From the NCBI GenBank assembly GCA_018818965.1, contig JAHJQX010000020.1, positions 1-59,266 of the forward strand: 59,266 nt of DNA, written 5' to 3'. Shown piece after piece: positions 3,295 through 58,799 of the stretch (position 1 is its first letter; each line of letters opens with the position of its first letter). The DNA comes from Patescibacteria group bacterium. Lineage in GTDB: Bacteria; Patescibacteriota; JABMPQ01. Below the pieces are notes generated by a model, which was not told the origin of the DNA, searched no databases, and saw only the letters and a list, made by a program, of their open reading frames with translations. A program made the translations under genes and the position numbers.

Positions 3295-3343
3295 TAGTTT
3301 ATAGAAAATCAACTAGAAATTAAACATTTATCGTTCACCCCTA

Positions 3344-9830: not shown

Positions 9831-12563
9831 ATGACCGAAGTATTTATCGTAAAAAGGATAGCTTTTGTTGGTAGTTTAGCTGTTCTTTTATTTTTGATCG
9901 CATCGGGAAACTCACAGGCTGCTAATGGTTCAGATATTCAACCGGCGGATGATCTTATTTATTACGAAAGACTACGAGTCAACAGCTCTATCCATGTCGC
10001 TGACTCTAGTTATTATCCCCGCGGCGTTCATCTCGGTAGTATCGATGGTACGGGCGGGGTGATATTCACCAACGGTTCAATTATTAATGCTTCCGATGGT
10101 AGTGTACCAGTTACTTTTGGCGATGATGTGCGGATCGATGGTCGCATCTGGCGTGGCCCGAGTGCGGGTCCAGGTGATAGTTTCCCGGTCAAGATTTATG
10201 ATGATTTGCGGGTAGATGGTCAAATTTGGGCCGGACGCAGTAGGGGCAACACTGCCGATGGTCAATCGATAGTGATAGCTGATACAGTGCGCCCCGCTTT
10301 GGATAATATTAATGACTTTGGTTCTCCAGGTTTCCGGATGCGCGATGGCTTTTTTTCCGGCTCAGTTAATATGAGTAATTTAGGGGGAGCAAATGTTGTT
10401 CATGAAGATAATCTTAGTACAACTAATGATCCCCAAGCCGGGTACGTATTAGCTTATGATAGCGATAATAGATTCCAGTGGGTGCGAGCTTCAACCAGCA
10501 GCTCTGGTACATTGTCAGATAATGATTGGACCGGAGCGGGTAGTGGAAAGATGTATGCCACTTCTGAAGATGACTATGTCGGAATCGGACTTACCGATAC
10601 CAATAATATTACTGCTAGATTACATGTAGTTGATAATACTAATACAAATTCCACTGTATATGGAGAAGCGAATGGGATTGGTAGTGCTGCTTTGTACGGT
10701 TTAGCAACCGCACCAGGTAGTACAGCAGTTTATGGTTCTGGGGATGCCTATGGTGGAGATTTTAGTGGTACCGAAGCCAATGGAGTAGGTGTTAGTGGCG
10801 AAGCCAATGGTGTGTCTGGAATTGGTGTAGAGGGTAAAGCTGCTCATATTTCCGGCACTGGCGTTAAGGGCGAGGCGTCTGCTACGGACAGTGGTACTAA
10901 TTATGGTGGTGATTTCTCCGCAGCCGGTACAACTGGAGTAGCTGTTAGAGGACAAGCTACTTCTACTAGCTCAGATACTAGCTATGGCGGGTATTTCTCC
11001 GCTGCTGGTTCTGCTGGGATGGGAGTGCGTGGTGAAGTTAGTGATACGAGTCTGTTAGCAGCCTCATATGGCGGATATTTCTCTTCGGCTACTGGGTTGG
11101 GTAGAGGTGTTTATGGCTATGCAAGCAATACTCTTGGTATAAATTTCGGTGGATATTTTAAATCTGATAGTGTTCTAGGCAGTGGTGTCTATGGTACCAG
11201 TCCATATTTTGGCGTGAACGCTTACGCCACCCCGGCTGCTGGGGCAACAACTAGTGCGGCCGTGGTTGGCCAAAATTATGATAGCACTACGGCCATTAGT
11301 CTACCTATACCAGTCGGTAATTATGGGGCCTTCCTTGAAACTACACATGATACTGGTACTGGAGTTTACGGTCATGCAGCAGATACTGACGGTGTCAATT
11401 ACGGTGGTACTTTTATTAGTGAGAGTAGCAATGGTTATGGCCTTTTCGCTAGCGGCGGTACTAGAGGCGGCTCTTTTATAGCCAGTGCGGGGGTAGGTGT
11501 TAGCTCTCTTGGCACAACTCATGGCGGTTCTTTTATAGGTTCTGCTGGTCCAGGGGTTTATGCTCTGGGTGCTACCAATGGGATTGAAGCAACCGCTGCC
11601 GCTGGTGCCGGGGTATCTGCCACTGGTACTGCTTATGGCGTTGAGGCAACAGCTAGTGCGGGGGCAGGAGTAAAGGGGACTGGTACTACTTATGGCGGCG
11701 ATTTTTTAGCTAGTAGTGGTACAGGCGTAAGGGGTATAGCGACTACCGGGACTGGAGTCAGTGGAACAGGTGATACAGGTGGTGGTAGTTTTACTGCTAG
11801 TAGCGGTACTGGTGTTTATAGTAGAGGCACCACTTATGGAGCATATCTTACTACTATTACAGCGGGAGGAATTGGCGTAGAGGGGTATGCTGGTACTACG
11901 GGGTCATCAGCTAACTATGGAGTGTTAGGTCAGACCATAGATAGTGGCGCCGGTACAACTGTTTGGGGTGATTCACTTTCTGGCGGTAGATTTTATACTA
12001 ATTACGCTTCGGGTATCGGAGTTGAGAGCTATACTGATGGTGATGATAGCTCAGCTGTTTATGGATATACTAGTGGAGGTGGCACAAGCTACAGCGGAGA
12101 GTTTAGTGGAGCTAATTTTAAGGTTTCTTTAGGCCCTTCCTCAAACAATTTTACTGTTGAGAATTTGCCCATTGCTGGCAATACTACTGATGTTCAAACT
12201 GATGGAAATGGCAATTTTATTGAAGTTGGCTCTTCCCGTAGATATAAATATGATATTCAAGATTTGGTCGTTGATAAAGACGCTGTTCTAGATTTGCGGC
12301 CGGTAAATTATAAATATAAAAGAACTGACGAGAGAGATATTGGGCTAATTGCTGAGGAGGTGTATGAAGTTTTGCCAGAGCTTGTTGTGCTGGATAAGGA
12401 AGAAAAACCGAAATCAGTAAAATACGATCGTGTTCCAGTGTATCTTCTCGAACTAGCCAAAGAGCAACAAGCAACAATCGAAAGCCAGGAAACTCGCATC
12501 CAGCAATTGGAAGATACTATTTGTAAATACCTACCACAAGAAGAAATGTGCTCGAGTGACTAA
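9831..12563 (+). CDS. secreted glycine-repeat fibre protein with a C-terminal tail-fibre S74 intramolecular-chaperone domain (paralogue 1)
   Basis: 910 aa. It has a signal peptide (IAFVGSLAVLLFLIASGNSQA), a conserved ~230-aa N-module (GDDVRIDGRIW, YDDLRVDGQIW), a VGIGLTD...ARLHV tail-fibre-like neck, ~490 aa of G/S/T/A/Y repeats (YGG(Y/D)F...G.GV.G), and a C-terminal SSRRYKYDI...DLRPVNYKYK......IGLIAEEV.EVLPELV......V.YDRV.VYLLE.AKEQ. Confidence 0.85.
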   Translation: MTEVFIVKRIAFVGSLAVLLFLIASGNSQAANGSDIQPADDLIYYERLRVNSSIHVADSSYYPRGVHLGSIDGTGGVIFTNGSIINASDGSVPVTFGDDVRIDGRIWRGPSAGPGDSFPVKIYDDLRVDGQIWAGRSRGNTADGQSIVIADTVRPALDNINDFGSPGFRMRDGFFSGSVNMSNLGGANVVHEDNLSTTNDPQAGYVLAYDSDNRFQWVRASTSSSGTLSDNDWTGAGSGKMYATSEDDYVGIGLTDTNNITARLHVVDNTNTNSTVYGEANGIGSAALYGLATAPGSTAVYGSGDAYGGDFSGTEANGVGVSGEANGVSGIGVEGKAAHISGTGVKGEASATDSGTNYGGDFSAAGTTGVAVRGQATSTSSDTSYGGYFSAAGSAGMGVRGEVSDTSLLAASYGGYFSSATGLGRGVYGYASNTLGINFGGYFKSDSVLGSGVYGTSPYFGVNAYATPAAGATTSAAVVGQNYDSTTAISLPIPVGNYGAFLETTHDTGTGVYGHAADTDGVNYGGTFISESSNGYGLFASGGTRGGSFIASAGVGVSSLGTTHGGSFIGSAGPGVYALGATNGIEATAAAGAGVSATGTAYGVEATASAGAGVKGTGTTYGGDFLASSGTGVRGIATTGTGVSGTGDTGGGSFTASSGTGVYSRGTTYGAYLTTITAGGIGVEGYAGTTGSSANYGVLGQTIDSGAGTTVWGDSLSGGRFYTNYASGIGVESYTDGDDSSAVYGYTSGGGTSYSGEFSGANFKVSLGPSSNNFTVENLPIAGNTTDVQTDGNGNFIEVGSSRRYKYDIQDLVVDKDAVLDLRPVNYKYKRTDERDIGLIAEEVYEVLPELVVLDKEEKPKSVKYDRVPVYLLELAKEQQATIESQETRIQQLEDTICKYLPQEEMCSSD
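10641..12111 (+). repeat. in-frame glycine-rich repeat array (~27-aa YGGxF units, then ~19-aa G.GV units); coordinates approximate
   Basis: Reading the protein gives units such as NYGGDFSAAGTTGVAVRGQATSTSSDTS / YGGYFSAAGSAGMGVRGEVSDTS.. / YGGYFSSATGLGRGVYGYASNTLGIN. Later units are TTHGGSFIGSAGPGVYALG / TAYGVEATASAGAGVKGTG / TTYGGDFLASSGTGVRGIA. Confidence 0.5.
12231..12560 (+). other. Peptidase_S74-like intramolecular chaperone (autoprocessing) domain plus a C-terminal coiled coil and Cys loop, paralogue 1
   Basis: SSRRYK (a Ser-x4-Lys dyad pattern) begins at 12231. GLIAEEVYEVLPELV and VYLLELAKEQQATIESQE match the endosialidase-chaperone pattern. The protein ends in CKYLPQEEMC. Confidence 0.7.
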
Positions 12564-12631
12564 TCTTTAATTTTCTCTGGTTTAGTGTTAAAATAGTTAA
12601 CAAGCAACAGTAATATGGGAGTAGTTTACTA

Positions 12632-15385
12632 ATGAAAATGAAAACTACAATGTTGCCGGCGATAATCACAATTAAAAGAATAGCTTTCAGTTTGGGAGTG
12701 GCTGTTTTGACGTGCCTGACTGTTACTAATCTGGCTCAAGCCTCAGACGCCTCTGACATTCAACCCGCCTCCGATGTGGTTTATGGTGAAAGACTGCGAG
12801 TCAACAGCTCCGTTAGTGTGGCTGACTCGAGTTATTATTATCGTGGCATTCATTTAGGTAGTACAGACGGCACTGGTGGCGTGATATTTGCTAATGGTTC
12901 AATTATTAATGTTTCTGGTGGTAGTACTCCAGTTACTTTTGGTGATGATTTGCGGATTGACGGTCGTATTTGGCGCGGACCAACGGCTGGTCCGGGTGAT
13001 AATTTCCCGGTCAAGATTTATGATGATCTACGCGTAGATGGCCAAATATGGGGAGGACGGAGTAAGGGAAATACTGCTGATGGCCAATCTATAGTGCTAG
13101 CTGATACTGTGCGTCCAGCTTTGGATAATATTAATGACTTTGGTGCTCCAACTTTCCGGATGCGAGATGGCTTCTTCTCTGGCACGGTCAATGTGGGAAA
13201 TTTAGGGGGGGCTGGCGTTGTTCACGAAGATAATTTAAGTGCAACCAATGATCCGCAGGCCGGATATGTGTTGGCATACAATAGCAATAACCAATTTCAG
13301 TGGGTTGCTGGTTCGGGCGTTGGTGGTTCAGATACTGACTGGACGGGAGCGGGCACGGGCACAATGTATGCTACTACTACTAGTGATAATGTAGGGATTG
13401 GTTTAAGCACTGGCTTGAATGCCAAGCTTCATGTTTATGATGCCAGCAATACAGTTGTAGAAGGACAAAGTGTTTCAGCAGCCGGAGTAGTAGGGAGAAG
13501 TTCTACTGGCGATGGGGTAAAAGGTCACAGTACTTCTAGTGAAGGTGGTTGGTTTGAGACGGCCAGTGGCACCCGTGCTGTCTATGGCCAAGCGACTGAC
13601 ACTGGTAGTGGTGTTCACTATGGTGGTTATTTTACCGCTGGCAAGAATAGCGGCATTGGGGTTCTCGGATCATCTACTGGTTCTGACGGAGCCGGTGTTT
13701 ATGGTAGTTCCACCGGAACGGGCAGTAGCGCCACCGGTGTTTCGGGAATGGCGGCTTCCTATGGAGGTGATTTTGCAGCTACCGGGACAAGTGGACTTGG
13801 AGTGAGGGGACAGGCAGTTGGTACTAGTGGTGTTGGGATACAGGGCATTGGTGGATATTATGGCGGTCAGTTTTCTAATAGTGGCACTGGTGGTGGAGTG
13901 GGTATGCAAGCGGCTGTAACTAGCGGTTCAACTTTTTCTTCGGCGGTTCTGGGGATTAATAATTCAACTGGTTTGATTTTACATCCTACCGGTCATTATG
14001 GTGGATATTTTAGTAATTCTATTGCTTCTGGCTATGGGGTTTATGCGACTGCTTCAGGTTCTAGTGGCATCGGAGTTTATGGCTCATCTAGCCATACAGG
14101 AGTAACGGGCACCGTTTCATCAACGGGTCAGGCGACTGGCTATGGCGTGTCTGGTACCTTGACTGATACCAGCTTGCCAGCTGTGGTTTATGCTGGGCTA
14201 TATGGGGGATTGTTTACCACCAATTATGCTTCTGCTACAGCATTATCCGGATCTGCTAGTAATTCTACTAGTACTGGTGTCTATGGCTACGGCGGATTAT
14301 ATGGTGGTGATTTTTATGCTGCGAATAATAATGGGGCGGGAGTAAGGAGTAGGGTTATAACTGGTTCGGGCGCTGCTTCAGCAGCGGTGTTTGGGTTAAA
14401 TAATACAACTGGCACAGTTCCGGCATATACTGGGCATTATGGAGGATATTTCCAATTAGAAAGTAGTGCCGGCTTTGGTGTTTATGCTAAGACGGATGCT
14501 GCTAATAGTACAGCTGTCCATGCTTACAATTCTTCCACCGGAGTTAATGCCACTGGCGGATATTTTGAAACGGAAAGCGATACCAGTTACGCTGTTTATG
14601 GTTTAGCTGATGGTGGTGGGACGGGGACAAATTATGGTGGATATTTTAAGGCTGATGCATCTTCCGGTACTGCTGTTTATGGCACTACTTCTGGAACTTC
14701 GGGAACGGGCGTTGATGGTATTGCCTCTGGATCTTCAGGGACAGGTGTTGCTGGAACTGGATATAAATATGGCGGATATTTTATTGCACAAGATACTTCA
14801 AATGGCTACAGCGGGGTTTTTTCAGGTGGTAATTTTTCTGTTGGATTGTCCACCACTTCTAATAAGTTTAGGATTACTGCGGGTCCTACATACACCGGCA
14901 TAGGTCTTGCGTCGGGCTCTTATCATGATGTTCAAATTTTAGCCGATGGTACTTTAGCTGATGGCGGCGCTTCTTCAATCCGCCTTAAAGATAATGTTGA
15001 AAATTTAACTTTTGATACTGCAAGTGTTCTCGATCTGCAACCTGTTAGCTTTACTTACAAAGAGAGTGGTGAGGCTGGTGTTGGTTTAATCGCTGAAGAT
15101 GTTGAGCAAATTATGCCCGAGTTAGTTACTTATGACGAAGAAGGTAGGGTTGATGGAGTAAGATATAGAAACATACCGCTGTATCTATTGCAAATAACCA
15201 AGGATCAGCAAACTAAAATAGAGGTTCAAGAAAGCAAAACAATTACGCAAGAAAACAAAAACACTGCCCAAGACAAAACCATCGAAGAACAAAAAAATAA
15301 AATCACCGAACTAGAAAATGAAGTCAGTAGTCTTAAATCAGCTTTTTGCCGGTATTTACCCCACGAAGATATTTGCCAGGAATAA
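12632..15385 (+). CDS. secreted glycine-repeat fibre protein with a C-terminal tail-fibre S74 intramolecular-chaperone domain (paralogue 2)
   Basis: 917 aa with the same architecture as 9831..12563. The N-module looks roughly 80% identical at DNA level by eye (e.g. 12940-13150 vs 10110-10320). The central repeats are diverged. The C-terminus is SSIRLKDNVENL...LQPVSFTYK...GVGLIAEDVEQIMPELV...VRYRNIPLYLLQITKDQ. Confidence 0.85.
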   Translation: MKMKTTMLPAIITIKRIAFSLGVAVLTCLTVTNLAQASDASDIQPASDVVYGERLRVNSSVSVADSSYYYRGIHLGSTDGTGGVIFANGSIINVSGGSTPVTFGDDLRIDGRIWRGPTAGPGDNFPVKIYDDLRVDGQIWGGRSKGNTADGQSIVLADTVRPALDNINDFGAPTFRMRDGFFSGTVNVGNLGGAGVVHEDNLSATNDPQAGYVLAYNSNNQFQWVAGSGVGGSDTDWTGAGTGTMYATTTSDNVGIGLSTGLNAKLHVYDASNTVVEGQSVSAAGVVGRSSTGDGVKGHSTSSEGGWFETASGTRAVYGQATDTGSGVHYGGYFTAGKNSGIGVLGSSTGSDGAGVYGSSTGTGSSATGVSGMAASYGGDFAATGTSGLGVRGQAVGTSGVGIQGIGGYYGGQFSNSGTGGGVGMQAAVTSGSTFSSAVLGINNSTGLILHPTGHYGGYFSNSIASGYGVYATASGSSGIGVYGSSSHTGVTGTVSSTGQATGYGVSGTLTDTSLPAVVYAGLYGGLFTTNYASATALSGSASNSTSTGVYGYGGLYGGDFYAANNNGAGVRSRVITGSGAASAAVFGLNNTTGTVPAYTGHYGGYFQLESSAGFGVYAKTDAANSTAVHAYNSSTGVNATGGYFETESDTSYAVYGLADGGGTGTNYGGYFKADASSGTAVYGTTSGTSGTGVDGIASGSSGTGVAGTGYKYGGYFIAQDTSNGYSGVFSGGNFSVGLSTTSNKFRITAGPTYTGIGLASGSYHDVQILADGTLADGGASSIRLKDNVENLTFDTASVLDLQPVSFTYKESGEAGVGLIAEDVEQIMPELVTYDEEGRVDGVRYRNIPLYLLQITKDQQTKIEVQESKTITQENKNTAQDKTIEEQKNKITELENEVSSLKSAFCRYLPHEDICQE
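13457..14867 (+). repeat. in-frame glycine-rich repeat array of paralogue 2; coordinates approximate
   Basis: Recurrent units include HYGGYF...G.GV.GSS, SYGGDFAATGTSGLGVRGQA, YYGGQFSNSGTGGGVGMQA, HYGGYFSNSIASGYGVYATA, LYGGDFYAANNNGAGVRSR, NYGGYFKADASSGTAVYGT. Confidence 0.5.
14972..15382 (+). other. Peptidase_S74-like intramolecular chaperone domain plus an extended coiled coil and Cys loop, paralogue 2
   Basis: SSIRLK begins at 14972. A 137-aa C-terminal module ends in a Q/E/K-rich heptad-like stretch and CRYLPHEDIC. Confidence 0.7.
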
Positions 15386-18707: not shown

Positions 18708-19850
18708 TTATTTCTCCACCGTTATTTCAATGTGATCTTTTAAACTGGGTACGCTTTTGACCCAGAAAGGGGAGAAAGAAACTTCTATTTTTTCGATGTC
18801 ATCCATCACGGCGTAATATTTTTCTACTTCTTCTTTATTCCGGCCAGCTAGTTGTTCTTTATCGAAGACCTGATTGCCTAATTTGGAGATAGCAGAGCCG
18901 ACTAAGTTAACCTTCACTTTTGCCCAACCTTCCTCTGGGTGGTATTCAATTATTTCATAGGTTGTTTGGTCGGCATCGGAGCTGGTAAATTCTTTGCTAG
19001 CGGAAATTTTCTTTTTAATGCGGGCTACCCCCAGGTCGATCAAGGTTTGTTCATCGAATATCACCGCTATTAACTTGAGTTTTACTTTCATTGCAAATTC
19101 TTCGGTCGGTGTATCAGGCTTAACGGAAGCTTCGCTAATGACGATTTCTTTTTTTATTGCTTTCTCGTTTATTTCTTCTTTTGGTTTAAGTTGGGTACGT
19201 AGATTTTCTAACCCTTTTTGGTAGAGACTATCAATCACTTGTTGTTGTGCTTGGTCGATTACTTCTTGGGTAGCTACTTTTACTTCTTGGGTACCGCCAG
19301 TGGTGGCAGCAGATGTTTCTCCGTAGTAGGAACTTTGCCAATTTTGCCAGATCTTAACGATGGTAAAGTGAGTAGGCTCGATATTGCCCTGAGCACCAGC
19401 CTGGTCAGCGGTGATCCCCACTTCAGCTTTGCTGTGGGCAGGGATGACTACGCGAGCATCAGTACGAAACAGAATTCCAGAGTCGGAGAGCATTTGAGAG
19501 TGGGGGAGTAATGATTGGCTTTCGTCGAGTTTGTTGTAAATAGTGATAGTACCCGTAGCTCTGGTGTCGATGGTCTTAAGACCAATATCGGTGATCGTCT
19601 GGGTTTCTTCAGCCTCGGTCTGGATCATCCGTCCCTGGATATTTTGCAGTTGTGTGAGATCAAGATCTTCATTGGGCTTAATACTTACTTCATATTCGGT
19701 ATTAATAATTTCTTTTTTAGGAGTGATCTTGATGTCAGCCTTGGAGAAGGAAGCGTACAAAACAAAACCAATCAATAGTAGACTAATGACTGCGAAAATA
19801 AAAATTATTTTTTTGTATGATTTTCCAGTTTCGATTCGTCCGACGTACAT
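18708..19850 (-). CDS. membrane-anchored hypothetical protein, possibly baseplate-J/gp47-like
   Basis: There is an N-terminal TM helix (IIFIFAVISLLLIGFVLYASF). The segment TGTITIYNKLDESQSLLPHSQMLSDSGILFRTDARVVIPAHSKAEVGITADQAGAQGNIEP resembles, from my memory, a pattern in CPR proteins annotated as baseplate J family. The CDS call is solid; the family call is tentative. Confidence 0.5.
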   Translation of the reverse strand: MYVGRIETGKSYKKIIFIFAVISLLLIGFVLYASFSKADIKITPKKEIINTEYEVSIKPNEDLDLTQLQNIQGRMIQTEAEETQTITDIGLKTIDTRATGTITIYNKLDESQSLLPHSQMLSDSGILFRTDARVVIPAHSKAEVGITADQAGAQGNIEPTHFTIVKIWQNWQSSYYGETSAATTGGTQEVKVATQEVIDQAQQQVIDSLYQKGLENLRTQLKPKEEINEKAIKKEIVISEASVKPDTPTEEFAMKVKLKLIAVIFDEQTLIDLGVARIKKKISASKEFTSSDADQTTYEIIEYHPEEGWAKVKVNLVGSAISKLGNQVFDKEQLAGRNKEEVEKYYAVMDDIEKIEVSFSPFWVKSVPSLKDHIEITVEK

Positions 19851-30077: not shown

Positions 30078-32065
30078 ATGGCAGTCGCCGAAGTAAAAAA
30101 AATAGGCATCGTTGCCCATAAGAAAGACAAAGAAAAAGTCGTCGACTTTTTGTATGGCACGGGTCTCTTAGAGGTGACTAATTGGCAGGGTAAGGCAGTT
30201 AAGGTAGAAGCAGCTGAGTCTGAAGAAGATGCCAGCCAACTGGAATATAAGTTATCAAAGTCTCAGTTCGCGATTGGCTTTCTAGAAGAATATAAAGATG
30301 AGGAGAAGGTAAAATTAGTTGATAAACTAATTAGTGCTAAGCTACCAATGTCAGCTAGTAAAGTAGAAAGAATCGCTAAAGAATTTCCGATTGATAAAGT
30401 AGTGGATCGTTGTAACGAGTTGGAAGAAGAGATCAACCAGAAGCAGTCGGGAATCGATAGCTCAACCGAAGAAAAGGAACTCCTAGAGAAGTGGGTGAGT
30501 TTGGATGTGAAAGTTGCTGAAGCTCGCGAGACCAAGACTACCAAGGCTATTTTTGGGATGGTAGATAGTGAGCAATATTTAGCTTTCATTCGTGAGCTGG
30601 AAAAGAAGGTAACCCAAGTTGATATCCGAAAAGTGACTAATGATGAACAGCAGAATTATGTTTTGGTGATTTTTAATAAGAATTTTGAGCGGGAAGTTAG
30701 CAAAATTTTGTTCAAATATGGGCTGGAGAAAGTGAGTTTACCTTCCGCCGATAAGACTCCCCGTGAACTGTTGGAAGATTTGTCAGAACGCAACCGAGCT
30801 CACCGCAAAGACATTAAGAAGCTAAAGTCTGAAGCGAAGAAACTGGCTAAAAAATACTTAGCGGAGCTCAAAGTATTATTCGATCATATCACTTGGCAGG
30901 TTGATAAGACCGCCGTTCAGAAAGATTTTAAAGAGACTAATAGCACATTCATAGTAACTGGTTGGATGAGGAAAGATGATATTAAGCGGGTGAAGATAGG
31001 ATTAGAGAAGATCACAACTAACTTTGTTATCGAAGAGATGGAGCTAGAAAAAGGCGAGGAGGCTCCCGTGATTATCCGGAATTCTTCCTTTATGCGACCG
31101 TTTGAAGCGGTGACTAGTATTTATGGCTTACCTAAGTCTTCAGAAGTGGATCCAACCCCTTTCTTATCAATATTTTTTATAATCTTTTTTGGTTTGTGCC
31201 TGACTGATGCTGGCTATGGTTTAGTTTTGATGGTTCTGACCTATTTAGCAATTAAAGTTCTCAAGATCCCCAAGGAAAATCAGCGACTACTGCGACTTTT
31301 GATGTATGGCGGGTTTGTTACTTTCATTATTGGTGCTTTGACTGGTGGCTGGTTTGGTCTAGTTTTAGATGAGCTGCCAGCCAGTTTGGGTTGGTTGAGT
31401 AAAGGTCTGATAGCGATTAGACTGATTAATCCGATCGAAAATCCAATCGTGATGCTGGGACTGTCGTTCGCCTTAGGTTATATCCACATTATCTATGGCA
31501 TTGCGATTGATATGTGGTGGAAGATCAAAAATGGCGATGTTAAGGATGGTATTTTAGATAGTGGCACCTGGATTTATTTTTTGTTGGCTATGGGTTTCTA
31601 TGGCGCAACGGCAGCTGGCGTCCTACCCGAGAGTCTGAAGTCGGTTTCATTGTATCTATTGTTAGCCGGTGTAGTGGTATTAATATTGACTCAAGGACGT
31701 AAGCAGAAGAATCCGATTATGAAGTTGCTGGCGGGTGTTGGTAGTTTGTATGGCTTAGTGGGATATATGAGTGATATTCTGTCCTACTCGCGCTTGCTGG
31801 CCTTGGGATTAGCAACGGGTGTAATCGCCATGGTGATAAACTTGATCGCCGTGATGTTCAAAGATATGGTGCCAGTATTTGGCTGGGTACTGATGGTGCT
31901 GATTATTATTGGTGGTCACATTTTCAATATTGTGATTAATGTGTTGGGTGCTTATATTCACTCCGGACGATTGCAGTTTGTGGAATTTTTCCCCAAGTTT
32001 TTCCAAGGGGGCGGTAAGATTTTCCGACCATTCAAGCGGGTGAGTAAGTATGTGGATTTGAAGTC

Positions 32066-32069
<4 letters not shown>
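30078..32069 (+). CDS. ntpI: V/A-type ATPase subunit I (membrane a-subunit)
   Basis: 663 aa. The N-terminal half is a cytoplasmic coiled coil and the C-terminal half is multi-TM, with LSYSRLLALGLATGVIA (the essential Arg helix) and HIFNIVINVLGAYIHSGRLQFVEFF. Confidence 0.9.
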
Positions 32070-33009
<940 letters not shown>

Positions 33010-33022
33010 TTCTAGTCAGTTC

Positions 33023-33193
33023 GGCTAGTCGTCTTAGTATATCTAGAAAACATGTCAGATTTCCCCAGCCTGCCTGCCGGCAAGCAGGCTGGGGAAATCC
33101 AACTCGGCTTCCGGCCTTGCTCTCCCGCCGAAGGCGGGAACCGTGCCTGCAAGGTCTCCAGACAGTTTTCTAAATACACCAAGGCGACTAGCC
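33023..33193 (+). repeat. GC-rich palindromic/structured insert A (CCTGCCTGCCGG family) between ntpK and ntpE
   Basis: The outer arms are GGCTAGTCG (33023-31) and CGACTAGCC (33185-93). A 42-nt near-perfect palindrome GATTTCCCCAGCCTGC-CTGCCGGCAA-GCAGGCTGGGGAAATC spans 33058-33099. A second hairpin is TCCCGCC-GAA-GGCGGGA (33123-39), nested in GGCCTTGC/GCAAGGTC. Confidence 0.55.
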
Positions 33194-33227
33194 ATCCAAT
33201 TTTGGAAAAGTTGTAATTATATAAAGA

Positions 33228-33794
33228 ATGGCATTAGAAGATATTACAAAAACAATTACAGAGGAAGCTCAGGCAGAAGCGAAAAAGATCAAATCGGCTG
33301 GCGATAAACAGGTGGCTGAGATTGTGACTGAGGGTAAAGAGAAAGTAAAAGCTGAGGAAGTCAAGATCAATCAACGGATTGAGAAAGAAGTGCAGAAGGT
33401 CATGGAACGGGTTAAGTTTCAAACCAACATTGCGGAGAGAAATCAATTAGTGGCAGCCAAGCAGAAAATCGTTGGCGAAGTTTTTGCTAAAGTTCTTGAG
33501 CAAATGAGTGGTCTCGATGAAAATAAGTACGTTGAGTTTGTTACTGGCCTAGTCAACGGACTACCTGACGTGGCTGAGGGTGAGATTGTACCGGTCGCCG
33601 GCAAAGAAGAGTTGACTAAGCGGATTATTGATGGCAGTCAGAAGAGTTTTGCCGTGTCAGCTGATTCTATTCCGGGTGTAGGCGGATTTATTTTTCGCTC
33701 GGAGAACATCGAGATCAATAACACCTTTGCTGCCCTGCTAGATGAGAAAAAAGGTGATTGGGAGATCGAAGTCTCCAAGATTTTGTTTGCTTAG
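33228..33794 (+). CDS. ntpE: V/A-type ATPase subunit E
   Basis: 188 aa. It has a long N-terminal K/E/A helix (ITEEAQAEAKKIKSAGDKQVAEI...) and a globular C-domain, in the operon position after K. Confidence 0.85.
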   Translation: MALEDITKTITEEAQAEAKKIKSAGDKQVAEIVTEGKEKVKAEEVKINQRIEKEVQKVMERVKFQTNIAERNQLVAAKQKIVGEVFAKVLEQMSGLDENKYVEFVTGLVNGLPDVAEGEIVPVAGKEELTKRIIDGSQKSFAVSADSIPGVGGFIFRSENIEINNTFAALLDEKKGDWEIEVSKILFA

Positions 33795-33804
33795 TATTCT
33801 TTAG

Positions 33805-34809
33805 ATGATGACTAAATCCCAATATTTATACGCTACCGGTCGAATACGTAGCCTAGAAACTAAGCTACTATCCACCAGTGATATGGAGCGCATGATTGAT
33901 GCCAAGGACGCCACCATGGCTTTTAAGGTCTTTAATGATCTTAGCTATGCGGACGAGCTAGCTGACATCGAGAAGCCAGAGGAATACCAAGCGGTTCTCA
34001 ATCATGACCTGCAGCAGGTAAAGGATGTCTTAAAGCAAATAACGCCAGATTCTAGGGTGATGGATCTACTCTTTTCTCGCTATGACTATCATAACATCAA
34101 GCTTTTTCTCAAGGCTAGGATTTTAGAAAAAGATCTAAGCAAATATGAGTCTAATCTTGGCAATATTGATCCGGAGCGTTTACGAGACTATATTATTAAA
34201 GACACCAAAACAGCTATTCCAGCCGAGATTGAGGAGGTGATTCGGGAAGCCAAGAAGGAATTTGATAAGAAGGACGTTGGTGGCTACATAATTGATTCAT
34301 ATATTGACGGAAAGTATTTTGCCAGGTTAAAAGAATTAGCCGAAAAGTTAAATAATAGCTTTACTACCAGTCTAGTCAGGAACTGGATCGATATCGCCAA
34401 CGTGAAGTTATTTCTGCGTGCCAAGAGATTAGAGTTAGAATTAGAAAAATTCCAGAGCTATTTTATTGCGGGCGGTAATATTTTAGCTTCTAGCTTGGTG
34501 AATTATTATGGCAAAGATCTGAAAGAGGCAGTGACGATTTGTTCACGCGGTTTTGAAGACGCGGCAGTAAAAGAGGCGATCAAAGATTATGCCGAAGGTG
34601 GCGAGCTGTGGAAAATGGAAAAAGCTTTCGAGAACTATGAGATTAAGTTTATTCAGCAGGCCAAATACATTGCCTACGGACCAGAGATTGTATTGGCCTA
34701 TTATTTGGCGAAGAAAAACGCCGTGCGCAACGTACGTTTGATTTTTACGGGCAAGTTAAATGATTTGCCTAGCGGTGAGATTAAAGAACGTGTCAGAGAA
34801 ATATACTAA
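33805..34809 (+). CDS. ntpC: V/A-type ATPase subunit C (eukaryotic d homologue)
   Basis: 334 aa. YLYATGRIRSLETKLLS, DYHNIK.FLKA and N.VRLIF.GK are typical AtpC/NtpC features. Confidence 0.85.
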   Translation: MMTKSQYLYATGRIRSLETKLLSTSDMERMIDAKDATMAFKVFNDLSYADELADIEKPEEYQAVLNHDLQQVKDVLKQITPDSRVMDLLFSRYDYHNIKLFLKARILEKDLSKYESNLGNIDPERLRDYIIKDTKTAIPAEIEEVIREAKKEFDKKDVGGYIIDSYIDGKYFARLKELAEKLNNSFTTSLVRNWIDIANVKLFLRAKRLELELEKFQSYFIAGGNILASSLVNYYGKDLKEAVTICSRGFEDAAVKEAIKDYAEGGELWKMEKAFENYEIKFIQQAKYIAYGPEIVLAYYLAKKNAVRNVRLIFTGKLNDLPSGEIKERVREIY

Positions 34810-34810
34810 A

Positions 34811-35134
34811 ATGGAACACAAAATTGGTATAATCGGCAGTCACGAAGAAATACTCGGATTTAAAACCTTGGGTCTGGTGCCTTTGGCCGTGCGCAAGAAA
34901 GAAGAAGTTATTACCAAGCTTGATGAGTGCATTGAGAAGAAAGAATACGCGGTGATTTTTGTTGTCGAAAACTGGGCCGAGCAGGTAGAAGAAGAATTAC
35001 TCGAACGCTCACGGGGTGCTTTGCCAGCCGTGGTGACAATCCCGGGTTATGCTGGCAGCAAAGGCATGGGCGAGAAGAAACTACGCAAGATTGTGGAACA
35101 AGCGGTAGGTAGTGATATATTATTTAAAGACTAG
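34811..35134 (+). CDS. ntpF: V/A-type ATPase subunit F
   Basis: MEHKIGIIGSHEEILGFKTLGL....V......KL.E......YAVIFV.E matches subunit F. I take the start at the ATG at 34811; the track's 34760 start would overlap ntpC by 50 nt. Confidence 0.85.
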   Translation: MEHKIGIIGSHEEILGFKTLGLVPLAVRKKEEVITKLDECIEKKEYAVIFVVENWAEQVEEELLERSRGALPAVVTIPGYAGSKGMGEKKLRKIVEQAVGSDILFKD

Positions 35135-35138
35135 CCAT

Positions 35139-35249
35139 TTATTACTTTATCATAACCACTTTGCTGGCAGTAAGCTTTTTTAGAAGGAAACTTGCGATGT
35201 CCGCCTGCCTGCCGGTAGGCAAGGCTCAGCGATTATGACAAAGTAATAA
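35139..35249 (+). repeat. GC-rich structured insert B (CCTGCCTGCCGG family) between ntpF and ntpA
   Basis: The outer 17-bp arms are TTATTACTTTATCATAA (35139-55) and TTATGACAAAGTAATAA (35233-49), with one mismatch. The core contains CCTGCCTGCCGGTAGGCAAGG (12-mer at 35204-35215). Confidence 0.55.
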
Positions 35250-35281
35250 AAATATATAAACAACTAATTCATTATTAAGAA

Positions 35282-37072
35282 ATGAACGAAGATACAAAAC
35301 AAGCAGAGACAAATCCTGACCAAGGAATTATTACTAAAGTTTCTGGTCCATTAGTCGTTGCCAAAGGCATGAGTGAGGCCAAGATGTATGAGGTGGTCAA
35401 GGTGAGTGAAGAAAAGCTCATTGGTGAGATCATTGAGCTGGAAGGTGACCGCGCTTCTATCCAGGTATATGAAGAGACGGGCGGTCTTGGACCGGGTGAC
35501 CCAGTTTATCGAACTGGCAGTCCACTATCAGTAGAATTGGCTCCAGGATTGATGGAATCTCTTTATGATGGTATCCAGCGACCACTGAACTTAATTCAAG
35601 AAAAAGCGGGCGACTTTATCACGCGTGGTATTGAAGTGCCAGCGATTGATCGCGATAAGAAATGGGGATTCAAACCGGTGGTGAAGGTTGGCGATGAGGT
35701 AGTTCAAGGCGACACTCTAGGGACAGTTGATGAGACCACTCTAGTTGAACACCGGATCATGGTGCCTAAGGGGGCAGTGGGCAAGATCAAGGAAATAAAG
35801 AGTGGCGAATTTACAGTCGAGGAGACAGTAGCCGTAATTGCGGGCGAAGATGGTCAGGATGTTGAGGTTATGATGCTGCAAAAATGGCCGATTCGTGAAC
35901 CGCGACCGGTAGCTTCTAAGTTAGTTCCGACCGAGCCCCTGATTACTGGTCAACGCGTAGTAGATACTTTCTTCCCAATCGTAAAGGGTGGTGTGGGTTG
36001 TGTGCCGGGACCGTTTGGCGCGGGCAAAACAGTAATTCAGCATCAATTTGCCAAGTGGGCCGATGCGGACATTGTGATCTTTATTGGTTGCGGCGAGCGT
36101 GGTAACGAAATGACAGATGTGTTGATGGAATTCCCGGAACTTAAAGATCCTCGCTCCGGTGAACCACTAATGAAACGAACAGTTCTAATTGCTAATACTT
36201 CTAATATGCCAGTGGCGGCGCGTGAAGCTTCGGTTTACACTGGTATTACTTTGGCCGAATATTATCGGGACATGGGTTACAAAGTAGAGCTGACAGCTGA
36301 TTCGACTTCTCGTTGGGCGGAAGCGCTACGAGAAATCTCGGGACGACTAGAAGAAATGCCCGGCGAAGAAGGTTATCCAGCCTACTTAGGTTCGCGGACG
36401 GCAAGTTTTTACGAACGAGCGGGCAAAGTACGGTGCCTGGGTGGTGAGAAGCGGGAAGGATCACTCAGTGTCATCGGTGCTGTTTCTCCTCCAGGTGGTG
36501 ACTTGTCCGAACCGGTGACACAGAATACTCTACGCGTGACCAAAGTATTTTGGGGGTTAGATGATGATCTAGCTAACCGACGACATTTCCCGGCTATTAA
36601 TTGGTTGAATAGTTATTCACTATATTTGGAAGATGTTAATGACTACATGAAAAAAGAAGCGGGCAAAGATTGGCCCGAGATGCGTGGACAGGCGATGCAA
36701 ATTCTTCAGGAAGAAGCCAGTCTGGAAGAAATCGTTCGCTTGGTGGGTATCGAAGCCTTGTCTCCGAAAGAACAGTTGTTACTTGATACCGCCAAGGCTA
36801 TTCGCGAAGATTATCTGCAGCAGGACGCTTTTGATGACGTTGATTCCTACGCTTCGCTGAAAAAGCAATACTGGTTGCTTAAAGCGATCATGACTTTTCA
36901 CAACAAAGGTACGGAAGCAATTGAGAAGGGCGCTGAGCTTAAGAGTCTACAAGAATTACCGATCAAAGAAAAAATTGCTCGGGCGCGATTTATTCCTGAG
37001 GAAAAATTGGCCGAAATAGAAAAATTGGTTGATGAGGTAATGAAGGGGATTGAGGGTGTAGCGAAAAACTAG
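35282..37072 (+). CDS. ntpA: V/A-type ATPase catalytic subunit A
   Basis: 596 aa. The Walker A is GPFGAGKTV. It also has the A-subunit non-homologous insert, GERGNEM and [10 protein letters not shown]. Confidence 0.97.
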
Positions 37073-37123
37073 GTTATAGGTGTTAGGCATTAGGTTTTAG
37101 GTTAAATAAATTTTGAAAAATAT

Positions 37124-38521
37124 ATGTTAAAAGAGTACAAGACTATTAAAGAAATTGCTGGCCCGTTGATGATTGTAGAGAAAATTGCCGACGTTAAGTA
37201 CGACGAGCTAGTAGAAATCGAAATGTCTACGGGCGAAAAGCGTCGTGGTCGGGTTCTAGAGGTCACCGACGAGTTTGCCGCTATTCAAGTTTTTGAGGGC
37301 ACTCGAGGGCTGGGTACCAAAGGCGTAAAGGCCAAATTCCTCGGACGGGGGATTGAGCTGCCGGTTTCTAAAGAAATGCTGGGTCGAGTTTTTGATGGTT
37401 CTGGCCGACCAAAGGATGATGGCCCGGAGATTGTCCCGGATCAGAAGAAGGACATTGCGGGCGCGCCGATCAATCCTTACGCCCGTGATTTTCCTAACGA
37501 TTTTATTCAGACGGGCATTTCCACTATTGATGGTATGAATACTCTCGTGCGTGGTCAGAAACTGCCGATTTTCTCGGGCGCTGGCTTGCCTCACTCGGAA
37601 GTAGCGGCGCAGATTGCCCGTCAAGCTAAGGTGGTCGGTGAAGGGGGTCAAGAAGACGATGCACCGTTTGCCGTGGTTTTCGCGGCGATGGGCATTACCT
37701 TTGAAGAGTCTGAGTATTTTATTAATCAGTTCAAAGAAACGGGCGCGATTGAGCGAGCGGTAATGTATATGAACTTGGCTGATGACCCAGTGGTCGAGCG
37801 TATTATTTTGCCACGCTTGGCTTTAACTTGCGCAGAATATCTAGCCTTCGAGCTTAATATGCACGTTTTGGTAATTCTCACTGATCTCACTAATTATTGC
37901 GAAGCGCTGCGAGAAATCTCTGCTTCTCGTAAAGAGGTTCCTGGCCGTCGTGGTTATCCGGGATATCTTTATACCGATCTCTCAACTCTCTACGAACGAG
38001 CTGGCCGAATAAAAGGGAAAACTGGTTCAATTACACAGATTCCAATTTTGACTATGCCCGAAGACGACAAGACTCATCCAATCCCCGATCTTACTGGCTA
38101 TATCACTGAGGGACAGATTATCTTGTCTCGGGAACTACATCGTAAAGGTATCTATCCTAGCATCGATGTATTACCTTCATTGTCGCGATTGTCACAAAAG
38201 GTGATGAGTAAAAGAACGCGTGAAGATCATTCTGGTGTGGCTAATCAGCTGTTCTCTTCTTATGCTCGTGGTAAAGAAGCTAAGGAGCTAGCGGTGATTT
38301 TAGGTGAAGCGGCTCTCTCCGAGGCTGATAAGAAATTTGCCCAACTAGCCGATGAATTTGAAGATAAATTTGTCCGGCAGGCGCATGATGAAAATCGCAG
38401 TCTGGAAGAGACATTGAACCTGGGTTGGGAATTGATTAATATTTTGCCTAAGTCTGAAATGAAGAAAGTGAAACCAGAGCAGATCGAGAAGTATTTGCCG
38501 AGGAAGGAAGAGCCAAAATAA
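37124..38521 (+). CDS. ntpB: V/A-type ATPase subunit B
   Basis: 465 aa. The motifs are [23 protein letters not shown] and [21 protein letters not shown]. Confidence 0.97.
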
Positions 38522-38543
38522 TCAGCGCGATTAGAATATATAA

Positions 38544-39170
38544 ATGGCCAAAAAATTAAACGTCAATCCAACTCGCATGGAGCTCTTGCGACTCAAGAAA
38601 CGAGTCAAGACGGCCAAGCGGGGATATAAATTACTCAAAGAAAAGCGTGATGGGCTGATGAAACAGTTCATGGCGATTATTCGTGAGGCCAAGGGAATGC
38701 GTGAGCAAGTAGAAGGCAAGATGCCGGAAGCGCTCAAGAGCTTTCTTTTTGCCTCGGCTGATATGCGACCAGAAGCACTCGAGGAATCGCTAGCTATGCC
38801 TTCACAAAAGGTGTCACTGGAGTCTGAGATCAAAAACGTCATGAGTGTCAACGTGCCGCAGTTTACTTTCAAACAAGAAGGCAAGTTTCTTTGCTATAGT
38901 TTATCTTCAACTAGCTCGCAGCTAGATGATTCGCTACGAACTTTTTCTGATTCATTGCAGGATATGATCAAGCTAGCGGAGATCGAGCATTCAGCTGCTT
39001 TGTTGGCGGAAGAAATTGAAAAAACCCGCCGCCGCGTAAACGCTCTCGAATACGTAATGATCCCAGACCTGGAAACAACGGTGCGATTTATTACTCTCAA
39101 GCTGGGTGAGCAGGAAAGAGCCGGTATTGCGATGGTGATGAGAGTTAAGGAGATGATTAAGGATCAGTAA
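38544..39170 (+). CDS. ntpD: V/A-type ATPase subunit D (central stalk)
   Basis: 208 aa. The motifs are NPTRMELLRLKKR.K.A.RGYKLLKEKRD.L and RRVNALEYV.IP.L. Confidence 0.93.
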   Translation: MAKKLNVNPTRMELLRLKKRVKTAKRGYKLLKEKRDGLMKQFMAIIREAKGMREQVEGKMPEALKSFLFASADMRPEALEESLAMPSQKVSLESEIKNVMSVNVPQFTFKQEGKFLCYSLSSTSSQLDDSLRTFSDSLQDMIKLAEIEHSAALLAEEIEKTRRRVNALEYVMIPDLETTVRFITLKLGEQERAGIAMVMRVKEMIKDQ

Positions 39171-46645: not shown

Positions 46646-46676
46646 AGATTTGGAGTTTAGTATTATTATTTTTGCA

Positions 46677-46734
46677 GCTGTGAGTGTTTGAGGAGTCATC
46701 CCGGTTCTACCGGGAGGGCGACGAGTTTCACAGC
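46677..46734 (+). other. GC-rich nested hairpin in the thyA-folA spacer
   Basis: The outer stem is GCTGTGA (46677-83) / TCACAGC (46728-34). The inner stem is CCCGGT-TCT-ACCGGG (46700-14). It sits in a 155-nt gap that is otherwise AT-rich. Confidence 0.35.
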
Positions 46735-46800
46735 CAGAAAAAGAATAACGCCAACCCTCCACCAAACCTGTAAAAGTTTATCACAAATTAACTATTCACC

Positions 46801-54083: not shown

Positions 54084-54163
54084 AAGGTTAATCATGGTTG
54101 GTGAGTGAACCCGGCCCCGATCTGATCGGGGCTAAGGTGAACGAACTAACCATGATTAACCTT
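54084..54163 (-). other. structured element D: a perfect 16-bp helix enclosing a 48-nt core (candidate cis-regulatory RNA) upstream of prmC
   Basis: The arms are AAGGTTAATCATGGTT (54084-99) and AACCATGATTAACCTT (54148-63). The inner stem is 9 bp, GCCCCGATC/GATCGGGGC (54114-32). The reverse complement of the core is 29/48 identical, ungapped, to the core of element E. Confidence 0.55.
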
Positions 54164-58715: not shown

Positions 58716-58799
58716 TTGCGACTAGCTATAGTTACCTCTCTCACCACAGCTCAGCCAGAAGCGGAGCCGGGTTCGATCGGCAACTATAGCTAGTCGCAA
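58716..58799 (+). other. structured element E: a perfect 18-bp helix enclosing a 48-nt core (candidate cis-regulatory RNA) upstream of the PP-loop gene
   Basis: The arms are TTGCGACTAGCTATAGTT (58716-33) and AACTATAGCTAGTCGCAA (58782-99). The inner stem spans 58749-58767 (GCTCAGC..GCGGAGC). The core is homologous to element D in the opposite genomic orientation. Confidence 0.55.

Follow-up and report, generated by a model that had tools for sequence, protein, structure and literature searches.

The locus considered here raises the question of what a short GC-rich palindrome is doing in the V-type ATPase operon of a Patescibacteria-like bacterium, where it stands in two unusually long spacers between genes, and in elp3, the gene of a tRNA-modification enzyme. 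The window, by which we mean the whole 59,266-nucleotide stretch that was analyzed, is a complete contig from a groundwater metagenome (ENA ERZ27247117, k141_353167; 43% GC). A model's reading of the letters alone (the sequence-only reading) had singled out the 12-mer CCTGCCTGCCGG in the two spacers, whose contents we call inserts A and B, and had assigned it to a dispersed family of the type of repetitive extragenic palindromes (REP) or of MITEs (miniature transposable elements with inverted repeats). We favor the explanation that the repeat is a very small, 20–21 bp GC-rich palindromic insertion unit behaving as selfish, horizontally spread DNA, and that A and B are separate, lineage-specific hairpins. 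We put the probability of this explanation at about two in three.

The palindrome and the hairpins that hold it

The 12-mer occurs exactly three times in the window, at 33069–33080, 35204–35215 and 58117–58128, always on the plus strand, and the triple occurrence reported by the sequence-only reading is therefore confirmed. With up to one mismatch allowed there are five matches, compared to 0.14 ± 0.35 expected, and none of 100 dinucleotide shuffles reached five. The 12-mer is the left half of a GC-rich palindrome of 20–21 nt with the consensus CCTGCCTGCCGG(C/T)AGGCAGG (family units are of the CCTGCCTGCCGGNNGGCAGG type). The 20-mer consensus, CCTGCCTGCCGGCAGGCAGG, is a perfect palindrome that no shuffle produced, and the three window sites match it with one, two and two mismatches. 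Copy A (33067–33090, AGCCTGCCTGCCGGCAAGCAGGCT; core 33069–33088, differing from the perfect 20-mer by one mismatch) makes up the tip of insert A's hairpin 1. Copy B (35204–35226, CCTGCCTGCCGGTAGGCAAGG followed by CT), a 21-nt variant with a central T and an extra A, lies within insert B, and is identical at 23 of 26 positions to copy C (58117–58139, CCTGCCTGCCGGCCGGCAAGG followed by CT), which stands in frame within elp3 and reads SLAGRQAGG on the minus strand. Together with their immediate flanks, the palindromes fold at −11 to −25 kcal/mol. All three reading frames are open (PACRQAG, LPAGRQ and CLPAGR), both strands read alike, and none of the six frames contains a stop.

The earlier account of the third copy is corrected in that it is located in the coding sequence of elp3, on the minus strand (56976–58679). 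The identity of this gene, which encodes a radical SAM/GNAT tRNA-modification enzyme, was established by Pfam, by comparison with PDB structures and by an alignment of 18 homologs. Copy C falls within a clade-specific variable insertion of about 41 residues (amino acids 177–223) that is missing from the solved Elp3 structures.

The V-type ATPase operon has the order I (30078), an RDD-family gene, K, E, C, F, A, B and D (to 39170). Insert A is located between the genes for subunit K, the proteolipid (32536–33009; Pfam ATP-synt_C), and subunit E (33228–33794; vATP-synt_E), and insert B between those for subunit F (34760–35134; ATP-synt_F) and subunit A (35282–37072; ATP-synt_ab and related domains), all on the plus strand. 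The gene coordinates bear out the reported spacer lengths of 218 nt for K–E (stop 33009, start 33228) and 147 nt for F–A (stop 35134, start 35282).

Insert A (33023–33193, plus strand) consists of an outer stem of about 28 pairs closing a three-way junction formed by hairpin 1 (33058–33099), hairpin 2 (33123–33139) and a helix at 33113–33156, with a minimum free energy of −98.9 kcal/mol (z = −8.9). GC content reaches 0.65 within it, compared to 0.43 for the contig. Its outer stem is the bracketing inverted repeat that had been described, and the 42-nt near-palindrome was likewise recovered, with arms at 33058–33078 and 33079–33099 that are 95% complementary. Insert B (35138–35250, plus strand) has an AT-rich outer stem around a GC-richer interior that includes copy B, and folds at −39.2 kcal/mol (z = −3.9). 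An inverted repeat does bracket B, but its arms (35138–35160 and 35228–35250) span 23 nt at 87% and are thus longer and less perfect than the 17 bp with one mismatch that had been claimed. When the palindrome was removed, the folds of both A (−78.6) and B (−27.7) kept their architecture. No Rfam family reached its gathering score anywhere in the window, with only noise (E above 0.4) in 32950–35350.

Among contigs of seven groundwater runs, the foreign ones that touch A or B match only about 22 nt (33067–33090 or 35202–35223) and turn to unrelated sequence beyond; some of them bear two copies of the palindrome 100–150 nt apart. The outer arms of A and B had no second copy at 80% likeness or more in the source run (X1) or in two related runs. 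Since only the ~22-nt palindrome recurs and the outer arms are single-copy, A and B do not represent a single MITE in two copies. Each is a hairpin element of its own, with one copy of a much smaller unit inside it. The proposal of REP- or MITE-like dispersed elements thus stands for the palindrome, and falls for A and B as wholes, whose outer arms and interiors are unrelated.

Orthologous loci were recovered from relatives through the E subunit (L003, L004, L005 and L007, at 90%, 84%, 55% and 35% identity) and through Elp3 (L136, L135, L137 and P0010, at 89%, 84%, 79% and 74%). Insert A is present in L004 too, outer stem and junction included, with hairpin 1 in the form GGATTTCCCCGGCGTGGAAATCC, compared to AGATTTCCCCAGCCTGCCTGCCGGCAAGCAGGCTGGGGAAATC in the window, a net gain of 21 nt located exactly at the loop. 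With insert A present and the 12-mer missing in L004, the 12-mer was not part of A's original interior, and the palindrome is, judging from these alignments, a secondary insertion into pre-existing hairpins. At elp3, copy C is identical in L136. The DNA alignment shows a gap of 21 nt, or seven codons, in L135 and L137, and the same seven-residue gap is found in P0008–P0010, the 74% relative included, in the 18-homolog alignment. The reciprocal arrangement occurs in the thyA–folA spacer, where the window has a hairpin (46651–46761, plus strand) with a 5-nt loop (CCCGG-TTCTA-CCGGG) and no palindrome, and L135 has a perfect palindrome in the loop. L135 contains three copies in 21.7 kb, none of them at the window's sites. 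These reciprocal filled and empty sites, and the turnover of sites in L135, indicate that the unit was gained or lost independently in sister lineages; the direction of change at each empty site follows from parsimony among few relatives.

The larger hairpins also differ among relatives. The outer stem of A is kept in both L003 and L004, with about nine of its 28 pairs changed on both sides yet still paired, and its interior is shared by the window and L004 and has been replaced in L003. In place of insert B, L003 has a 57-nt hairpin of unrelated sequence, and hence different hairpins at both the K|E and the F|A junctions. L005 and L007 share the gene order and have no insert A, their K–E spacers being 56–57 nt long, and their F–A spacers of 28–82 nt are without such structures (28 nt and no hairpin in L005). 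The 56-nt K–E spacer of L005 (L005:3944-3999) includes a stretch resembling the 5' arm of A (window:33023-33056; GAAAACACGT and …TATATCTTTGAAAACACGT), a likeness by which, for A only, the 5' arm may derive from an ancestral spacer and the 3' arm from a later inverted copy. A further observation on A concerns an 8637-nt contig of the source run (Logan X1 record 4), which matches 33095–33123 with an A-like hairpin 1 lacking the palindrome (GGATTTTCCCCAGCGTGGAAATCCAACTCGG…) and has a palindrome copy 1.1 kb away; another locus, or another organism, may thus share part of A's interior.

This region recurs without differences in a contig of the Logan assembly for run SRR6514730, possibly the same data as the ENA assembly. 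Most of its sampled words are present in several separate groundwater studies (100% in X1, 70% in X2, 60% in X3 and 55% in X4), and X2, X3 and X4 have contig pieces that overlap it in part at 99% identity or more. The X2 and X3 contigs carry the K–E copy of the palindrome with no differences. An artefact was ruled out, as the elp3 insertion is inherited in the 89% relative of another study, and copies are found in isolate genomes, in complete or very large assemblies and in other groundwater contigs.

Distribution, insertion sites and associated genes

A pattern covering the three window copies was found, among the matches listed, in stretches from more than 120 GTDB species with unrelated flanks. 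The idea of a dispersed GC-rich palindromic family comparable to REP is therefore borne out by many further copies in other genomes. Record titles among these listed matches name about 28 Patescibacteria, 38 Bacteroidota (including cultured Flavobacteriaceae and Cyclobacteriaceae), 11 Omnitrophota, 8 Planctomycetota and 9 uncultured Gammaproteobacteria, together with Verrucomicrobia, Nitrospirota, Elusimicrobia, Ignavibacteria, Acidobacteria and Chloroflexota; Firmicutes, Actinobacteria and Archaea did not occur among them. Most of the listed 8-kb stretches have a GC content of 31–50%, whereas chance hits would favor GC-rich genomes, which argues against a chance origin of the matches. On viral contigs the perfect 20-mer was found at 42 sites, compared to about 0.1 expected by our own estimate, with up to at least six on one contig. 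Full-text literature searches with motif strings and peptide translations yielded no relevant paper, and keyword searches no description of such a repeat.

Several loci in this collection have peculiarities of their own. The viral contig IMGVR_UViG_3300025106_000007 contains the 21-nt unit CCTGCCTGCCGGTAGGCATGG at least 11 times in tandem (L014:3915-4142), in an array that runs into the contig end, and more palindrome copies near its other end (L010:630-680). The open reading frame (ORF) beside the array has a C-terminus that we take to resemble a plasmid or phage replication initiator, and the array itself may be of the iteron kind or may have expanded in frame. In the metagenome-assembled genome (MAG) CAYJWM01, an ORF of 1876 residues, cut at the end of the stretch (L044:2371-7998; also L041 and L128), includes the palindrome peptide PACRQAG and many dispersed RSEAR/RAEAR and CHSE/CHAE motifs, suggesting that this genome may translate several kinds of mini-repeat in frame. 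Flanks of the GTCATT...AATGAC type recur around palindromes at many loci.

The size of the unit is well defined. Among 114 GTDB copies, 64 are the perfect 20-mer, 16 are a 21-mer with an extra G, and 21 are a central-T variant. Paralogous pairs of filled and empty sites within single loci show that exactly 20 nt were inserted in a tRNA-Gly (L036), in tRNA-Leu (L047 and L098), in a tRNA D-loop (L175) and in repeats (L149 and L172), and that 21 nt were inserted in L012. None of these clean paralogous sites has a target duplication. Base counts around the 114 GTDB and 42 viral copies revealed only a weak AG...CT extension and variable left flanks, and immediate extension of the stem beyond the core was not enriched. 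Predicted hairpin loops account for 24% of 168 insertion sites, compared to 16% of control positions, a modest enrichment (p = 0.007). All sites whose prior structure is established are loops, namely hairpin 1 of A, the thyA–folA hairpin, the anticodon, D and variable loops of tRNAs, and the L172 repeat.

Fourteen of 120 copies lie deep in long ORFs, including those for valyl-tRNA synthetase, RecG, DnaG primase and a TonB-dependent receptor. Compared to two solved RecG structures, the RecG of a Yanofskybacteria MAG is longer by seven residues, located exactly at the palindrome. As these genomes consist mostly of coding sequence, the low proportion of copies in ORFs is in keeping with the removal of most coding insertions by purifying selection. 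The 21-nt core was not significantly enriched inside ORFs (5/14 vs 31/106). By a looser, uncorrected sorting, 50 copies were placed between tandem genes, 7 between convergent and 7 between divergent genes, and 29 in ORFs. The asymmetric variants had no strand bias relative to genes (7 vs 6 for the T variant), which argues against an RNA-level orientation constraint. No neighboring gene of 100 aa or more recurred around the 120 copies, and no family was present at more than nine loci.

An association with a gene surfaced when small ORFs, below the 100-aa cutoff for neighboring genes, were examined. The palindrome-bearing loci, 1.2 Mb in all, contain six small ORFs with a GIY-YIG signature, and five of these are located 66–199 nt downstream of a palindrome. 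The five are 78–95 aa long, the one next to tRNA-Gly in CAYQCH010000003.1 having 85 aa, and the four that were submitted to Pfam match PF01541, with the GIY-YIG domain only. At four of the five loci, involving Gly-TCC, Leu-CAA and phage tRNAs (L036:3600-4070; L047, minus strand, 3300-3700; L098:5740-6210; L175:400-900), the 5' part of a tRNA gene with the palindrome in a loop is followed by the GIY-YIG ORF. An intact copy of the same tRNA follows the ORF in L036, L047 and L098; only the 5' part recurs in L175, where ARAGORN calls no tRNA. We regard this link, striking as it is in statistical terms, as a lead to the mobilizing enzyme and not as a demonstration, because it concerns a minority of copies, because 17 other viral GIY-YIG relatives are without the palindrome, and because the window has no such ORF.

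The palindrome also occurs in tRNA genes of other designs. In a phage contig, ARAGORN identifies a tRNA-Met(CAT) of 92 nt (L168:2239-2330) in which the 20-nt palindrome is the long variable arm, and L147 contains this gene in truncated form. In L135 (8700-8830), our own reading of the sequence places a palindrome in a duplicated 21-nt 5' fragment of tRNA-Ala(TGC), at a distance of 14 nt from the full-length copy. The arrangement resembles the tRNA/GIY-YIG architecture in miniature, with the ORF missing.

These observations are best explained by two layers of insertion. In the first, long non-coding hairpins would have accumulated in the few free spacers of a compact genome and turned over quickly; besides A and B, the window has at least three more of them. 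In the second, the cross-phylum palindrome would have been inserted repeatedly into those hairpins, with a preference for loops, and once into elp3. The three landings in 59 kb would then be the apical loop of the K–E hairpin, the F–A hairpin element and a variable loop of Elp3, extended by seven residues in frame. Such landings may be survivable, in that the unit has no stop in any of six frames, its 21-nt form preserves the frame, and an insertion into a hairpin loop would merely lengthen the stem. The unit was probably mobilized in trans. Both the lack of target duplication and the preference for loops would be in keeping with an enzyme whose substrate is single-stranded or stem-loop DNA, the candidates being an HUH/Y1-type transposase and a stand-alone GIY-YIG nuclease whose action is followed by repair-mediated copying. 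Transfer between phyla could be effected by phages of the kind whose contigs bear the palindrome. The consequence for the V-ATPase operon would be neutral, or at most an incidental stabilization of existing RNA hairpins. A more far-reaching version is that the 20-mer is the smallest known cross-phylum mobile unit, copied into single-stranded or stem-loop DNA, such as the loops of hairpins and of tRNA genes or intermediates of replication, by a widespread enzyme acting in trans, with phages as carriers and with a 21-nt form that colonizes essential genes. The best candidate for the enzyme would be the stand-alone GIY-YIG nucleases that insert into tRNA genes and are always accompanied by the palindrome in the disrupted upstream tRNA copy. 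We consider this version unlikely in its full extent.

Alternative explanations and known repeat systems

Several findings weigh against the explanation of a selfish, horizontally spread unit. The copy number for this organism is drawn from 59 kb of its genome; the GTDB species-set figures refer to the matches listed, and the taxonomic picture is a sample. The identity of the 20-mer across phyla would imply that it was either transferred horizontally or made repeatedly on one common template. The window contains no transposase or nuclease gene, the GIY-YIG ORF included. Direct-repeat flanks of at least 8 nt accompany 12% of copies, compared to 1.9% of controls, a result that misfits a single duplication-free mechanism, and more than one insertion route, or local duplication, must therefore be allowed for. 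Finally, the compensated outer stem of A in three lineages, and the hairpins at both junctions of L003, are as expected under selection on RNA.

These last two features are also the strongest points of the alternative that survives best, namely that A and B are selected intercistronic RNA structures, serving as barriers to 3' exonucleases or as RNase III sites, with the palindrome as their strongest helix. They would tune subunit stoichiometry by uncoupling the stability of the membrane-sector (I, K) and E-C-F mRNA from that of A-B-D, by analogy with the role of REP in malEFG. Both folds are very stable, and their positions, directly after K, of which many copies are needed, and directly before the catalytic subunits, suit such a role, as does the fact that the 90% relative has hairpins at both junctions despite their differing sequences. 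However, the 55% and 35% relatives manage the same gene order with spacers of 28–82 nt and no comparable structures, and similar hairpins are found at unrelated places of the contig, including a divergent promoter region. The palindrome itself also stands in elp3 and, at other loci, in ORFs and tRNAs with no preference for a strand, and the compensatory change at about nine pairs across the window, L003 and L004 can also be produced by intrastrand templated repair in long DNA palindromes. We consider selection on RNA structure an improbable origin for the inserts, and one that keeps some weight because of the compensated stem and the paired hairpins of L003; it concerns the large hairpins and not the palindrome family. 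The roles in mRNA processing, segmental stability or attenuation that the sequence-only reading proposed gain no positive support from these results.

A second alternative treats A and B as complete MITEs, non-autonomous derivatives of DDE transposons, with the 12-mer as a conserved internal module. Long inverted terminal arms and presence or absence among relatives would be expected of such elements, and the contig has several further arm-bounded insertions of 80–115 nt that are cleanly absent in relatives. One is a long hairpin in the mannosyltransferase/prmC spacer (54084–54163, minus strand; 28-nt AT-rich arms, GC-rich tip, z −10.8), which is shared by the window and L136 with one compensatory stem change from A-T to G-C, and is missing in L135 and L137, where the two genes abut. 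Another occupies the divergent spacer between elp3 and an asparagine-synthase-like gene (58716–58799; 30-nt AT-rich arms, GC-rich tip, z −7.4); L136 has a different insert at this site, and L135 and L137 have spacers of 41–44 nt with no insert. Yet the arms of A, B and these two hairpins are mutually unrelated, and those of the 54084–54163 hairpin are not derived from its local flanks. No target-site duplication flanks A, B or the 54084–54163 hairpin, and none is visible at the empty sites of L135 and L137. The arms have no second copy in the contigs of the source run at the likeness searched, a scan of JGI metagenomes for A's interior (TTTCCCCN{4,30}GGAAATCCRACTCGG) gave three GC-rich, unrelated matches at chance level, and L004 has A without the 12-mer. 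MITE-like status in the strict sense thus failed for A and B, which are without target-site duplication and are not multi-copy, and we hold their being complete MITEs to be quite improbable. The tip palindrome of the 54084–54163 hairpin matched viral contigs three times, about the chance level, and is therefore no evidence of a second widespread family.

Intrinsic terminators or attenuators, partially stopping transcription inside the operon, are a very improbable explanation. The stems are GC-rich and intergenic, and a minus-strand scan flags the A hairpin with a weak T-rich tail, but no sense-strand T-tract follows any hairpin of A or B, the promoter and terminator scan gave no sense-strand signal in 33010–33227 or 35135–35281, and copies of the family are equally frequent between divergent and convergent genes (7 vs 7) and also occur in ORFs. 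Finally, the perfect dyad symmetry and the location of two of three copies in one operon might recall a regulon of three operators for a dimeric regulator (half-sites TGCC/GGCA), but this can be dismissed almost entirely, as one copy is deep in a coding region and others are 3' of genes and not at promoters, the identical sequence occurs in many phyla, phage contigs, tRNA genes and an 11-copy tandem array, and its presence differs among close relatives.

If the palindrome is a small selfish insertion unit, it has counterparts among known systems, none of which it matches fully. REP families are species- or genus-specific and are mobilized by RAYT transposases. Their members, which reach a high copy number within one genome, are GC-rich imperfect palindromes of 20–40 bp with a GTAG/CGTC tag at one end, and side effects as mRNA stabilizers have been proposed for them (PMC3733652). 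The present unit resembles REP and REPIN in being a short GC-rich stem-loop palindrome that is dispersed, often between genes of one operon and sometimes in ORFs, without target duplication. There are three copies in 59 kb here and three in 21.7 kb of L135. Unlike REP, it has no GTAG/CGTC tetranucleotide at either end (114 GTDB and 42 viral copies), the same 20-mer is found in many phyla, and about 12% of copies are in ORFs and some in tRNA genes. Clustering of neighboring genes revealed no RAYT gene near any copy, and the window contains none either.

Rickettsia palindromic elements (RPE) are about 100–150 bp long (30–50 aa) and are confined to Rickettsia. They are selfish palindromic DNA that is inserted in frame into essential protein genes and translated, and that is also found in RNA genes and spacers (summarized in PMC3733652). 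The palindrome is similar in its in-frame insertion into functional genes, with seven residues added in each of elp3 and RecG and copies also located in ValRS and DnaG. It differs in its size of 20–21 bp (7 aa) and in its cross-phylum hosts, which are Patescibacteria, Bacteroidota and others. Mitochondrial GC clusters and repetitive hairpin-forming elements, which are reported from yeast, fungi, sponges and green algae (PMC2800124, PMC2670323), are likewise GC-rich hairpins in AT-richer compact genomes, nested in one another, located in spacers and occasionally in genes, and variably present among closely related strains; unlike the palindrome, they are organellar and lineage-specific in sequence. 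In the literature searched, no bacterial counterpart with a sequence shared across phyla was described.

The larger hairpins (A, B, 54084–54163 and 58716–58799) are like MITEs in being non-coding, 80–170 nt long, bounded by long inverted arms and present or absent among relatives, and unlike them in having no target-site duplication, no shared arm family and no further copy in the source run. GIY-YIG homing enzymes carry DNA-binding domains, and to our knowledge they do not spread a 20-bp palindrome. A subset of the palindromes adjoins ORFs resembling free-standing genes of this kind, but most copies have no such gene nearby. Elements of the IS200/IS605 group (PATE-like) bear hairpins and, in genomes that encode a Y1 transposase, insert 3' of a fixed tetra- or pentanucleotide and leave no target duplication. 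The clean sites of the palindrome have no duplication, and its left flanks are variable, with no fixed target motif. The unit therefore belongs to a known kind, that of small selfish palindromic repeats, and what is new here is its identity across phyla, the exact 20/21-nt unit and the association with tRNA genes and GIY-YIG ORFs.

A near-invariant 20-mer shared by many phyla and phage, with clean gain and loss and with copies in essential genes, would point to an unrecognized form of compact mobile DNA and to an enzyme that moves it. Where the palindrome has been inserted, annotated proteins contain peptides that are spurious or altered (LPAGRQ, PACRQAG, CLPAGR), its hairpins break short-read assemblies, and it could mark recent insertion activity in uncultivated lineages. 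The V-ATPase operon also suggests caution, in that GC-rich intercistronic structures in streamlined genomes may be parasitic insertions and not regulators.

Other features of the window and its relatives

The remaining gene content of the window is mostly housekeeping and Patescibacteria- or Parcubacteria-like, with genes for DNA polymerase III alpha, FtsW, NusA, ThrRS, RF-1 and PrmC, and also for ThyA, DHFR, SHMT, a H+-pyrophosphatase and Elp3. The nearest named Elp3 proteins are from Parcubacteria and Patescibacteria MAGs. A scan of the window for tRNA and tmRNA genes found none. The Elp3 of the 74% relative P0010 has a 24-residue insertion rich in Arg, Pro, Gly and Ala (APRPPRRPPATLRLRSGRGAKHRG; alignment A5, columns 449–472) in the conserved C-terminal half, which looks like another GC-rich element translated in frame.

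Within the operon, an RDD-family membrane protein gene (32066–32524) lies between subunits I and K. It is missing in L003, where subunit I is 93% identical and K follows directly after I at 59 nt, and in L005 and L007, an absence which indicates a recent insertion into the operon. The contig also encodes a membrane H+-pyrophosphatase (7624–9615) in addition to the complete V-type ATPase (30078–39170), a pairing that bears on membrane energization in reduced Patescibacteria-like organisms. In the stretches 9831–15385 and 18708–19850, two tandem paralogous proteins of about 910 aa, about 79% identical over a 300-nt stretch, have many YGG-type repeats and a C-terminal Peptidase_S74 domain (endosialidase chaperone), with a Baseplate_J-like protein close by. 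By these sequence features, they are probably phage-tail-fiber-like surface proteins encoded in a housekeeping region.

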